64,000 nt of DNA from Candidatus Bathyarchaeota archaeon (GTDB taxonomy: Archaea; Thermoproteota; Bathyarchaeia; Bathyarchaeales; Bathycorpusculaceae). This document shows positions 44,241-47,017 of this stretch, piece by piece. The notes under the pieces were generated by a model that worked only from the letters and a program-made list of their open reading frames with translations, had not been told where the DNA came from and did not search any database. Position 1 is the stretch's first letter, and every line of letters begins with the position of its first letter. The stretch lies in the NCBI GenBank assembly GCA_963775465.1, contig CAVZIW010000011.1, positions 15,913-79,912 of the forward strand, written 5' to 3'. The translations under genes were made by a program, and so were the position numbers.

Positions 44241-44303
44241 TACATAATAAAAAACCAGATAATTCCCTGCCTTTCTGGAAAGACCCAATTATCTTTAATA
44301 AAA

Positions 44304-45014
44304 TTATTCTTTCCTCATTGCATCTACCTTCAGATCTTTAGGCATCAGTTCAATAGCGTACCTCAAAGCGATTCGCGGCATAATTTTGCGGTTCTTAATA
44401 ACATAGTTATAGACTTCCTTGAGGTGTTTTCTGCTTTCCTCTTTGAGAAGCCACCCATAGCCCTTCTGCACCATATCATCCTCATCTACCAAAAGTATGT
44501 CACAAATTTCGAGGGCCTCCTTTAGGAACAAACCTTTTTTGGCCGGAACAATAAGTGAAACTGAGGAAGCTCGTTTGAGCCAGCGATTATCGCTTTTAGA
44601 CCAACGCTTTAATTCAGTGATAGTTTGTGGATATTTTTGGATTAGGTCGCCGATAGTGTGATTACAGAACCCATCGCATTTAGCCCAATTATTAATATAT
44701 TCTTCAATCCAGCATTTGAAAATCAGCAAGTCAGCAGGCTCGAGGCATTCAATGTAGCGTGGAAGCCAAAATGCAACTACAAAAGCTTCTTCGGTGTAGT
44801 CTGAACGATATAGTTCTTCGCATATCTTGAAAATAGCTTGTTTGTCGAGAGCTTTCACTTGAAGCCAATATTTTTTAGCTATTTTCCCAACTGTCTCTGT
44901 TTTGACACCGTAGAATTTTGTCTGTTCTTTGAAGAAACGTTGAGTACTTTTTTTTACTTTTTCATCAGCGTTTTCTTTTAGGTCTGCTCTTATTTGCAGC
45001 AGGATATTATTCAT
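44304..45014 (-). CDS. AlkD-like DNA alkylation repair protein (HEAT repeats)
   Basis: YGVK, NNWAKCD, NRWLKR, MVQKGYGWLLKE, RYAIE. Confidence 0.88.
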   Translation of the reverse strand: MNNILLQIRADLKENADEKVKKSTQRFFKEQTKFYGVKTETVGKIAKKYWLQVKALDKQAIFKICEELYRSDYTEEAFVVAFWLPRYIECLEPADLLIFKCWIEEYINNWAKCDGFCNHTIGDLIQKYPQTITELKRWSKSDNRWLKRASSVSLIVPAKKGLFLKEALEICDILLVDEDDMVQKGYGWLLKEESRKHLKEVYNYVIKNRKIMPRIALRYAIELMPKDLKVDAMRKE

Positions 45015-45079
45015 GAAAGAAAAAGTCTTCTTTTAAAATATGAGCTTTTCTTAAAAAATGAAATTAAAGAAAAGAGGGA

Positions 45080-45376
45080 TTAGAAATCTTCCATCTGGTA
45101 GAGACCAAAATCAACGTCTAACGTTTTTTCTGATCCGCAACTGTCTTCTAAATCATAAAGATGACTTGTTGTTTTCTCTAACTCACTTTTCTTAACTGTC
45201 AATTTTGTCTTAACCATCCTTGATTTTACTTTACCTTTTGGTTTACGGATTACATTGGTTGAATCGATGACAATGCTGTCATCGATGATTTTTGGTATGA
45301 CCTCAACTTTGACGTCGTCCACGCTTAAATCGCATTTCAAATCATCATGAACATGGTCATGTTCTTGTTTAGTCAA
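45080..45376 (-). CDS. 98-aa protein at the position usually held by ftsZ; possible FtsZ remnant
   Basis: GGAGG SD; 8-nt overlap with cdrS; ends LDVDFGLYQMEDF. Confidence 0.7.
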   Translation of the reverse strand: MTKQEHDHVHDDLKCDLSVDDVKVEVIPKIIDDSIVIDSTNVIRKPKGKVKSRMVKTKLTVKKSELEKTTSHLYDLEDSCGSEKTLDVDFGLYQMEDF

Positions 45377-45524
45377 CGCCTTTACGCCTCCAGACTTCAG
45401 CGCTAATCAGGTCTCGAATTGCGACTCGGATCGCTTCGGCACGGTTAGGATAGAACCGCTCGCCAACCAACTGGTCCAAAGCTTTTATATACGTTTCAGG
45501 CAGATACAGAGTAATTAATTTCAT
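45369..45524 (-). CDS. cdrS: CdrS-like ribbon-helix-helix regulator (not in ORF track)
   Basis: Hand translation MKLITLYLPETYIKALDQLVGERFYPNRAEAIRVAIRDLISAEVWRRKGVD; GGGAG SD. Confidence 0.85.
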   Translation of the reverse strand: MKLITLYLPETYIKALDQLVGERFYPNRAEAIRVAIRDLISAEVWRRKGVD

Positions 45525-45730
45525 ATGGGATATAACTCCCTAAGTTTTATGAACATACAACGCTAATTGTAGGTTATACTTCTATATATCATGTGGCAAA
45601 TATGAATATAACATGTTCGTTCCTTAACTTATAAATCAAGAAACATGTATTTTGCAAGTTCCTGTTAATTCATGCACCTCAAAGACTACGTTTTTATTTC
45701 TTGTTGAAGCAACTAACTACTTAGATAACC

Positions 45731-47017
45731 ATGTACGGTTCGGTTTTCGTCAAGAATTTTGGATGTTCCTCTAACACAGCGGATGGCGAAGTGCTAATAG
45801 GGTGCTTGTCAGAAGCGGGTTTCAAGATAACTTCTTCAGAAACAGACGCTGACCTGATTATCTACAACACCTGTGCAGTCAAAGGACCAACAGAAAACCG
45901 CATAATCAACCAAATAAAAAATGCGCCAAAAGGGAAAAAAATCATAGTTGCGGGTTGTTTACCTAAGATTAGTTTTGAGCGATTAGAGCGAGAAACCTAT
46001 TTCAACGGCGTAGTCGGTCCAGCATTTGGTGCAAAAATAGTTGAGGTTGCCACACGAGTTTTAGCTGGTGAAACAGTAATTAACGTTGAAGATTCAGAGA
46101 AGCCGCTTTTGAGTCTTCCAAAAAGAACATCCAATCCAGTCAGAAGTATAGTTCCAATTAACTTCGGTTGTGTAGGTAGTTGCAGTTACTGCTGTGTGAT
46201 TCAGGCGCGCGGTCATCTGCGAAGCTACAGGATTCAGGAAATTATGGAACGTGCGCAAAAAGACCTCTCTGAAGGTGTAAAAGAGTTATGGTTGACCTCG
46301 CAAGATACAGCCAGTTACGGCAGAGATCTAAATACTGATCTTGCAGAGTTGCTTTTTGCACTTGATCGTATAAAAGATAACTTTAAGATTAGGGTGGGCA
46401 TGATGACTCCGAATTTAGTATTGAAAATGCAAAGTAAACTGATTCAAGCATTCGAATCAAATAAAGTCTTTAAGTTTTTGCATTTGCCTATGCAGAGTGG
46501 AGACGATACAGTGCTTCGAAACATGCATCGGTATTACACATCAGCAGAGTTTAAAGACATTGCCAAAGCCTTCAGAATCAGCTACCCAAATTTGACGATT
46601 GCTACTGATGTGATTTTAGGGTTTCCAGGCGAAACTGAGGAGGCCTTCCAAAACACGCTGAAAGTTTTAGAAGAAGTTAAACCTGATGTAGTTAACGTTT
46701 CAAAGTTTTTTGCTCGACCCAAAACTGCCGCTTGGAAAATGAAAGATGGTTTGGTCGAGAAAGAGGAAATTAAACGCAGAAGCACCCTTACGTCAGATCT
46801 TTCGAAGCAGCTTTCTGCTGAACGCAATCGACAATGGCTGAAATGGATTGGAGAGGTACTCGTAGATGAAAAAGGAAAAGTTGAAGGCACATGGATTGGG
46901 CGAAACTTCGCCTACAAGCCAATCGCTGTAAAAAGCACTGGCAATTTGCTTGGAAAAACTTTGAAGGTTGAAGTTGTAGAAACTTTTGGAACCTACCTAA
47001 AAGGTGAAATAGCCTAA
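45731..47017 (+). CDS. tRNA t6A37 methylthiotransferase (archaeal MtaB/CDKAL1-like)
   Basis: FGCSSN, NTCAVK, GCVGSCSYC, QDT, HLPMQSG, TDVILGFPGE, TRAM domain. Confidence 0.9.
   Translation: MYGSVFVKNFGCSSNTADGEVLIGCLSEAGFKITSSETDADLIIYNTCAVKGPTENRIINQIKNAPKGKKIIVAGCLPKISFERLERETYFNGVVGPAFGAKIVEVATRVLAGETVINVEDSEKPLLSLPKRTSNPVRSIVPINFGCVGSCSYCCVIQARGHLRSYRIQEIMERAQKDLSEGVKELWLTSQDTASYGRDLNTDLAELLFALDRIKDNFKIRVGMMTPNLVLKMQSKLIQAFESNKVFKFLHLPMQSGDDTVLRNMHRYYTSAEFKDIAKAFRISYPNLTIATDVILGFPGETEEAFQNTLKVLEEVKPDVVNVSKFFARPKTAAWKMKDGLVEKEEIKRRSTLTSDLSKQLSAERNRQWLKWIGEVLVDEKGKVEGTWIGRNFAYKPIAVKSTGNLLGKTLKVEVVETFGTYLKGEIA

Follow-up and report, generated by a model that had tools for sequence, protein, structure and literature searches.

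The window analysed here is a stretch of 64,000 nucleotides of a Bathyarchaeia genome, and on its minus strand we found two small overlapping genes. The first, at 45369..45524, starts with ATG and encodes a CdrS-like ribbon-helix-helix (RHH) protein of 51 amino acids, as identified from the listing of open reading frames (ORFs) and a match to Pfam RHH_1. The second, at 45080..45376 (stop codon included), starts with TTG and encodes a protein of 98 amino acids, here called mini-FtsZ, that we regard as the remnant of a cdrS-linked FtsZ. The two genes overlap by 8 nt in the minus-strand ORF listing. A GGAGG Shine-Dalgarno-like site lies within the cdrS coding sequence at 45387..45391 on the same strand and is followed by a 10-nt spacer and the TTG at 45376-45374. 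Both the GGAGG and the TTG start of mini-FtsZ were unchanged at 30 of 30 congener loci, this conservation being explained in part by the overlapping cdrS codons (WRRKGVD), which force it. A sequence-only reading of this DNA had described a 51-aa RHH gene that overlaps an intact 98-aa ORF with a strong Shine-Dalgarno site, and had noted the lack of the GGGTGTG tubulin motif in that ORF. Both descriptions were confirmed, the latter by reading the translation, and the peptides it quoted (YPNRAEAIRVAIRDL, GKVKSRMVKT and the end ...HLYDLE...EKTLDVDFGLYQMEDF) were all found in the ORF translations.

Upstream of cdrS, at 45572..45623 (minus strand), a block marked out by its conservation contains three ACATRTT-like boxes, near 45616, 45605 and 45594 with a spacing of about 11 nt, as well as ATATATAG at 45582-45589. 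This block was almost invariant across 15 aligned loci, and these repeated boxes stand 5' of cdrS also in lineages whose ftsZ is full-length, dead or a mini; the block may represent a TATA box or an RHH operator. The mini-FtsZ stop codon is followed by a T-rich spacer (45015..45079, minus strand), which from its letters is a candidate oligo-T terminator. On the plus strand a gene for a MiaB-like radical-SAM methylthiotransferase (45731..47017; Pfam UPF0004, Radical_SAM and TRAM) diverges from cdrS. The same gene was the divergent upstream neighbour at 79 of 80 related loci and occupied the same position at a mini locus of family f9 (L054) and at a locus of family f6 (L081). That this neighbour is common to mini and full-length loci supports the orthology of the loci. 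Positions 44300-46000 were reproduced without indels or joints by contigs of public DNA data, four runs from as many studies, with one contig covering 44300-45472 unbroken; one of the four runs may be the source sample. As all four runs gave the identical sequence, an assembly deletion at mini-FtsZ, which the sequence-only reading had named as what would speak against it, is excluded.

The 51-aa protein matched Pfam RHH_1 with residues 4-40 (E 3.6e-7, 30.4 bits, cut-off 20.5) and has what characterises CdrS, a ribbon-helix-helix domain in a protein of about 50-60 aa. Its best NCBIfam match was the haloarchaeal CdrS model NF058555 (E 2.9e-10), with 40 bits and a model cut-off of 100; this shortfall says little about function, because the name of the model marks it as a model for haloarchaea. 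The CdrS-like protein was 92-100% identical, and its gene directly upstream of mini-FtsZ, at 30 of 30 congener loci, and cdrS was found upstream of a mini at 79 of 80 further loci. Eight ftsZ loci of other families in the order were compared, and each has the same RHH gene, in the same orientation, overlapping the start of a full ftsZ of 366-383 aa. At the window locus the cdrS-like gene sits 5' of an ftsZ remnant, not of a full ftsZ.

Based on several lines of comparison we are highly confident that the 98-aa gene is a remnant, left in place, of the cdrS-linked FtsZ. In BLASTP searches residues 8-98 of mini-FtsZ aligned with residues 278-371 of FtsZ, its last 94 residues, with an E value of 7e-9 (2e-6 for a second FtsZ), and hhalign, comparing a 30-orthologue profile with one built from 8 FtsZ, gave a probability of 97.5% and an E value of 5.7e-12. 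The segment GKVKSRMVKT aligned on the FtsZ strand GMLRVTLVMT, and the tail of mini-FtsZ aligned with those of cdrS-linked FtsZ, both intact (8) and GTPase-dead (13), the C-terminal end being ...APTLYDLDQYGEPEKPLNIDLGLYQLENF in the full cdrS-linked FtsZ and ...TSHLYDLEDSCGSEKTLDVDFGLYQMEDF in the mini-FtsZ of the window. Less diverged minis from other genera (L052) read VSPIVSEVVDTNALALCGAHVN...GKLKVTLV, compared to VGEIVTEMMDEDALVIWGARVN...GTLRVTLV in FtsZ. The start of mini-FtsZ overlaps the cdrS stop, which is the orthologous position to ftsZ. A word-based search returned no longer homologues at E <= 0.001, which is weak evidence, and a profile search with the mini family reached proteins of FtsZ length. 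The sequence-only reading had suggested a likeness of the tail and of GKVKSRMVKT to the C-terminus of archaeal FtsZ and had proposed an internally deleted FtsZ behind cdrS; the alignments bear out the former, and the full ftsZ that takes this place behind cdrS at every one of the eight loci in other families, the comparison it had pointed to, bears out the latter.

No Pfam and no NCBIfam match was obtained for the 98-aa protein. It had no Tubulin match and neither a T1 (GGxGxN) nor a T4 (GGGTGTG) signature, and FtsZ_C (PF12327) matched neither the window protein nor any of six minis of other lineages; only a residual likeness to the last third of FtsZ_C is retained. The protein is without the GTPase domain and the FtsZ_C match that define an FtsZ and yet, judged by its alignments, is derived from one. 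These alignments show an apparent deletion of roughly FtsZ residues 18-277, that is, of the whole GTPase domain. Residues 1-17 of mini-FtsZ (45326..45376, minus strand) form a peptide like the N-terminus of full-length FtsZ, the minis reading LTKx(5-7)L[RK][YC] and the FtsZ of family f1 LT[RK]x(6-8)[IL]RY[AV]W, at an equal distance from the cdrS stop. The likeness of these about 17 residues fits an in-frame internal deletion that joined approximately residue 17 to residue 278, and as a short motif it may be taken as suggestive of such an event, and as no more than that. Residues 18-60 (45197..45325, minus strand), which align to FtsZ residues ~278-330, represent what is left, degenerate and now rich in Lys, of the C-terminal subdomain's end, and residues 61-98 (45083..45196, minus strand) hold the linker followed by the conserved tail at the C-terminus (SHLYDLED...EKTLDVDFGLYQMEDF) with its shared two-part motif. 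The earlier description of the gene as a 'tail-only' FtsZ, for which a putative role as decoy or adaptor was put forward, is apt for the conserved tail, but about 40 residues of the degenerate relic of the C-terminal subdomain have been kept as well.

Mini-FtsZ is a genuine gene that purifying selection maintains in a clade of several genera within one Bathyarchaeia family. A homologue without internal stop was detected in 57 of the 61 genomes of the genus, including the genome of the window, and none of the congener minis found had an internal stop codon; with the RHH gene upstream at 30 of 30 loci and the TTG and GGAGG kept, the ORF is far beyond chance. Over the whole gene the pairwise dN/dS (Nei-Gojobori) was 0.156, with 0.23 in residues 5-64 and 0.079 in residues 65-98, pointing to purifying selection; with dS of the gene at ~1.3-1.4 these values are rough, because dS is near saturation (1.3-1.8). 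The identity of mini-FtsZ was 51-93% across congener loci where that of CdrS was 92-100%. At 90% identity the mini family fell into 135 clusters, none with a name other than 'hypothetical', and at 50% identity it had 120 representatives, nearly all of 60-135 aa. The suggestion that the locus is a snapshot of FtsZ loss was not upheld, as the state is old, under purifying selection and common to several genera. Candidatus Bathycorpusculum species are among the close relatives.

We surveyed 201 genomes of the order, the genome of the window included, with the mini profile, a 36-column tail profile, TIGR00065, SepF and CdvA as queries. The tail profile occurred in exactly one copy per genome in 168 of the 201 genomes, and about a third (roughly 66 of 201) carried a tail-only gene. 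Within family f1 the tail was located in a frame of 99-119 aa in 34 of 54 genomes (genera g1, g14, g17, g18, g19, g24 and g27), and in the remaining genera in a frame of 370-382 aa. TIGR00065 found no FtsZ in 27 of these 34 mini-bearing genomes, and the other seven had only a weaker FtsZ paralogue (<=319 bits), located away from cdrS and lacking the tail. This paralogue ends in ...GVESAFLRKNEKHLGPLKFNR, without the tail motif, and carries stop codons in one mini-bearing genome (G198). It was present in 4 of the 18 congeners searched first, and no FtsZ was found in a congener genome consisting of a single contig. The genome of the window, which is 92% complete, likewise had no TIGR00065 ftsZ match, and its sole match to the tubulin superfamily was an 887-aa Tubulin_2 protein. 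A mini and a strong-scoring cdrS-linked FtsZ never occurred together in one of the sampled genomes. Short 'intermediate' frames in four genomes (G312, G291, G331 and G235) lay at contig ends, and one in G183 was split by a run of N; none of them was counted as a mini.

Both types of FtsZ had M. jannaschii FtsZ1 as their best match among solved structures (327 and 268 bits). Likeness to solved structures gave no assignment of the two types to FtsZ1 or FtsZ2, the archaeal entries found being all of FtsZ1 type. Synteny, the one basis for such an assignment, suggests that the cdrS-linked type is FtsZ2-like. An FtsZ1-like nature would fit the other type, which in L014 adjoins ORFs that we took, by reading, as ribosomal-protein genes.

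Minis were also found outside family f1. In genus g37 of family f7, including two single-contig genomes, cdrS was followed by a 63-aa ORF, and in genus g67 of the same family by ORFs of 75-80 aa; in both genera the next gene is a convergent PHP-domain gene, as after full ftsZ elsewhere. In about 31 of the 54 f7 genomes, five of which were read as sequence, the frame that held the tail-profile match measured 69-98 aa (173 aa in G221, whose ORF reads 75 aa). Family f9 contributed one genome with a mini of at most 94 aa. The C-terminal part that was retained amounts to ~94 residues in f1, ~55-73 in g67, ~32 in g37 and ~30 in f9, and the tails have family-specific variants, LDQ being common to the minis and full-length FtsZ of f7 and LYQ to the minis and FtsZ of f1. 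In a tail tree, which with 37 columns is weakly resolved, the f1 minis formed one clade (support 96/91), and the two f7 mini groups fell outside the better-supported clade (93/82) to which the f1 minis belong. The differing retained lengths, the tail variants and the tree together support the view that cdrS-linked FtsZ was truncated at least twice independently, and three or four independent truncations are likely. In addition, 13 full-length cdrS-linked copies, nine from f6 and four from f1 (g32, g115 and g122), have lost T1, T4 and T7 yet keep the tail; one such copy, for example, has SLQDPLEAEAAE in place of GMGGGTGTGAAP. The three of these 13 copies that were scanned with Pfam retained FtsZ_C, at 65-102 bits.

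The two-part tail motif (LYDLE...LNIDLGLYQMEDY in the window) is common to intact FtsZ, GTPase-dead FtsZ and the three mini groups. At the position of the GID of the archaeal logo the window has D-V-D, and its relatives have N-I-D, G-I-E or P-I-D, as compared by eye. An AlphaFold2 model of mini-FtsZ built with the family alignment had a pLDDT of 62.7, a pTM of 0.18 and a single six-residue helix. With these low values of pLDDT and pTM the protein is predicted to be mostly disordered. Look-alikes of mini-FtsZ from the ESM Atlas, all unrelated plant clusters with scores below 0.9, were discarded. That so reduced a gene has stayed conserved suggests a function for the tail in itself.

SepF was found in 32 of the 34 mini-bearing f1 genomes and in 184 of 201 genomes across the order, a presence so general that finding it together with a mini tells little. 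The SepF of the window's own genome matched PF04472 with 37.5 bits (cut-off 27). A search with the SepF sequence profile matched structures 3ZIE and 3ZIG and did not retrieve 7AL1, and a model of the SepF core (pLDDT 82.4) superposed on archaeal SepF structures with TM 0.82-0.90, including M. smithii SepF 7AL1 at TM 0.82, as well as on complexes of SepF that contain FtsZ's C-terminal domain. The SepF cores of mini genomes were 63-80% identical to those of FtsZ-bearing relatives, and among 11 genomes with a mini and no FtsZ match the dN/dS of SepF was ~0.11 (31 of 55 pairs usable). The N-terminal motif MPFNLFRK / LPSLGIFRKPKK is conserved and may have a role at the membrane. Of the 201 genomes surveyed, 195 had CdvA, and in the genome of the window cdvA, cdvB and cdvC lie side by side on contig 6. 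The earlier proposal of a lineage with Cdv options agrees with this inventory, namely cdvA-cdvB-cdvC and SepF, with no FtsZ found.

The locus resembles the cdrS-ftsZ2 operon of Halobacterium and Haloferax as presented by Darnell et al., 2020 (PMC7439475) and Liao et al., 2021 (PMC8406309), in that a small RHH gene lies directly 5' of a gene of the ftsZ family; cdrS and ftsZ2 were reported to be co-transcribed (Darnell et al., 2020). Unlike in the haloarchaeal operon, the downstream gene in the window encodes only 98 aa without a GTPase domain, and the RHH protein scores below the equivalog cut-off. The window locus derives from the cdrS-ftsZ2 operon, its ancestral gene being identified with FtsZ2 by synteny only. 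According to Pende et al., 2021 (PMC8178401), the archaeal SepF monomer has a groove in which the C-terminal peptide of FtsZ is bound, and the logo of archaeal FtsZ tails centres on a 'GID' motif. Like the SepF-bound FtsZ peptides discussed with that work (M. smithii 7AL2; C. glutamicum 6SCS, 6SCP and 6SAT), mini-FtsZ has an acidic-hydrophobic C-terminus after a flexible linker. By eye, an x-I/V-D core appears to stand at the place of the GID in this logo, and the cognate SepF core retains its fold. The known SepF-bound peptides end a polymerising GTPase, whereas that of the window ends a free-standing and predicted-disordered protein. The GTPase-dead copies of f6 and f1 have a parallel in Nitrosopumilus maritimus, a Cdv-dividing thaumarchaeon for which Ng et al., 2013 (PMC3684127) describe a non-polymerising FtsZ with a degenerate GTP-binding signature. 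That FtsZ is of full length, whereas the window protein has lost the domain altogether and has a strongly constrained tail. For Bathyarchaeia, Kohtz et al., 2022 (PMC9723716) report CdvABC together with FtsZ1 and FtsZ2 homologues and FtsZ-like proteins of unknown role. The FtsZ-like proteins presented there are of tubulin fold and from the same class of organisms, and we noted no tail-only gene among them. Searches of the full text of papers gave no published description of a tail-only FtsZ gene.

On these grounds we propose that mini-FtsZ would be an intrinsically disordered protein that carries a short linear motif and is produced along with CdrS from a single regulated transcript. Its acidic-hydrophobic tail would bind in the FtsZ-binding groove of SepF, like the C-terminal peptide of full-length archaeal FtsZ. 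Being unable to polymerise, mini-FtsZ would serve as a ligand that tunes SepF, in its oligomer state, membrane binding or choice of partner, and not as a filament, and the Cdv machinery would supply the force for division and constriction. What selection would retain of the FtsZ system in these archaea is the contact of tail and SepF. Taken as a whole, that is, an FtsZ remnant acting as a disordered, CdrS-co-expressed SepF ligand with Cdv giving the division force, we hold this reading to be reasonably probable. A broader version is tentative and may well be wrong: the tail-SepF contact, and not the filament, would be the working unit in these archaea, a CdrS-controlled, non-polymerising peptide switching a SepF that acts without FtsZ (for instance in membrane remodelling or in coupling to Cdv), with the body, by then dispensable, lost or inactivated repeatedly, through deletions (two at the least and probably three or four) as well as in the GTPase-dead copies.

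Among the other explanations we rank a different partner of the tail, notably CdrS, before a tail acting in trans, and the latter before a purely regulatory ORF. That the tail acts on a partner other than SepF, foremost on CdrS as feedback on the RHH regulator or on a Cdv component, with SepF kept for other reasons, is rather unlikely. Because cdrS adjoins the tail in every lineage, an interaction of the tail with CdrS is equally open, and the cdrS-tail pairing with its stop/start overlap is the one feature kept in the full, the GTPase-dead and the 63-115-aa mini forms. The strong conservation of CdrS within the genus and the repeated-box operator conserved 5' of cdrS across the order fit such feedback, and the near-ubiquity of CdvA would suit a Cdv partner. 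However, co-regulation and translational coupling explain the operon linkage equally well, and SepF is the only documented partner of the archaeal FtsZ tail in the work cited (PMC8178401).

If the tail worked in trans, the mini would confer SepF binding on the second FtsZ paralogue, a protein that stops shortly past its globular domain. The absence of the tail motif from this paralogue and the single tail copy per genome are in line with this, as is the matching of the paralogue in many f7 genomes with a tail frame of about 70 aa. Since 27 of the 34 mini-bearing f1 genomes, that of the window among them, are without such a paralogue, the copy in G198 is interrupted by stop codons and the 63-aa minis hold nothing recognisable for gripping an FtsZ body, we consider it improbable. 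The peptide could also be functionless, its ORF being kept since translation or the mRNA matters to the expression or stability of cdrS, with the conservation of the tail as a by-product. Such a role would be compatible with a start inside cdrS, with the GGAGG and TTG partly fixed by cdrS codons, and with the fast-evolving middle and the lower identity of the mini relative to CdrS. It is nevertheless very doubtful, because the constraint is strongest in the tail, 190-290 nt past the overlap, because the same amino-acid motif recurs in separately truncated genes of differing lengths, and because no mini with an internal stop was found. The idea of an artefact, be it a deletion made in assembly or a piece of a decaying pseudogene, was prompted only by the small size and missing annotation of the gene, and with four identical public runs, evident purifying selection and the same architecture in 57 of 61 congeners and at 80 further loci it can practically be dismissed.

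The preferred reading, a SepF ligand left over from FtsZ, bears on how SepF is understood. SepF has been reported only from archaeal genomes with FtsZ and was interpreted as a membrane anchor of FtsZ (Pende et al., 2021), whereas in genomes of the present clade it is kept and constrained where we found no FtsZ GTPase. The sole FtsZ-derived sequence left in those genomes is a small, predicted-disordered protein ending in the tail. FtsZ has here been dissected by nature, which shows the part that selection still needs beside a second division machinery, Cdv, and makes testable both a function of SepF independent of FtsZ and an archaeal route from FtsZ-based to ESCRT-based division. With the mini family recognised, at least 120 clusters of 'hypothetical' genes are now assigned to a pathway.

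The cdrS-linked copy of FtsZ was found in a degenerate form that still had its full length, 351–380 amino acids, and in which the GTP-binding motifs T1, T4 and T7 were destroyed. Such copies were encoded at nine loci of family f6 (L081, L082, L084 and L095–L100) and at loci L089–L092 of family f1, in genera g32, g122 and g115. The C-terminal tail was retained in these copies, as was the FtsZ_C domain in the three that were scanned. In appearance, such copies are pseudo-GTPases intermediate between an intact FtsZ and the tail-only genes.

In G198, a genome that carries the mini-FtsZ, the second, non-cdrS paralogue of FtsZ (contig C10, 65401–66326, minus strand) is interrupted by TGA, TAG and TAA stops and looks like a pseudogene in the process of being lost. 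In genome G362, two neighboring FtsZ fragments on opposite strands (contig C4, 26474–27408) match model positions 25–242 and 244–333, and this arrangement suggests an internal inversion of an ftsZ paralogue.

Upstream of cdrS, a block at window positions 45572–45623 (minus strand) consists of three ACATRTT-like boxes, spaced by approximately 11 nt, and a ATATATAG element. The boxes and the element were also detected in the mini-FtsZ loci L103–L181 and 5' of cdrS in other families, and the block is conserved across the order regardless of which gene follows cdrS. It is a candidate promoter and a candidate operator for the RHH protein (CdrS). On the other side, the gene after the mini-FtsZ encodes a DNA alkylation repair protein (PF08713, E 3.3e-59; window 44304–45014, minus strand), as in 66 of the 80 related loci. 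This gene occupies the position of a convergent PHP-domain gene, which follows the full ftsZ in other families and was present in none of the 80; the 3' flank has therefore been rearranged in this clade. Three of the mini-FtsZ loci (L121, L151 and L165) lie on contig records titled Candidatus Acidoferrum sp., Methanocella sp. and Limnocylindrales bacterium, and these contigs are probably Bathyarchaeia DNA assigned to wrong bins.

The only tubulin-superfamily GTPase found in the window's own genome is an 887-aa Tubulin_2 protein (PF13809; contig C1, locus L101, 632–3295, minus strand), which carries GLGGGTGSG and has a long, coiled-coil-like C-terminal half. The adjoining gene (L101, 3329–4285, minus strand) encodes a 318-aa protein in which hydrophobic stretches were seen by eye at both termini. 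Besides the CdvA that is encoded in the cdvABC cluster (contig C6, 112434–115029), this genome has a second CdvA-domain match (C6, 38238–38561, plus strand; locus L078) within a 563-aa open frame. The SepF frames of the window's genus are 165–223 aa long (L002, L058–L062), compared to a total of approximately 125–155 aa in other genera (L064–L077), and a long, acidic linker, rich in Pro, Glu and Gln, joins their conserved N-terminal MPFNLFRK motif to the core.
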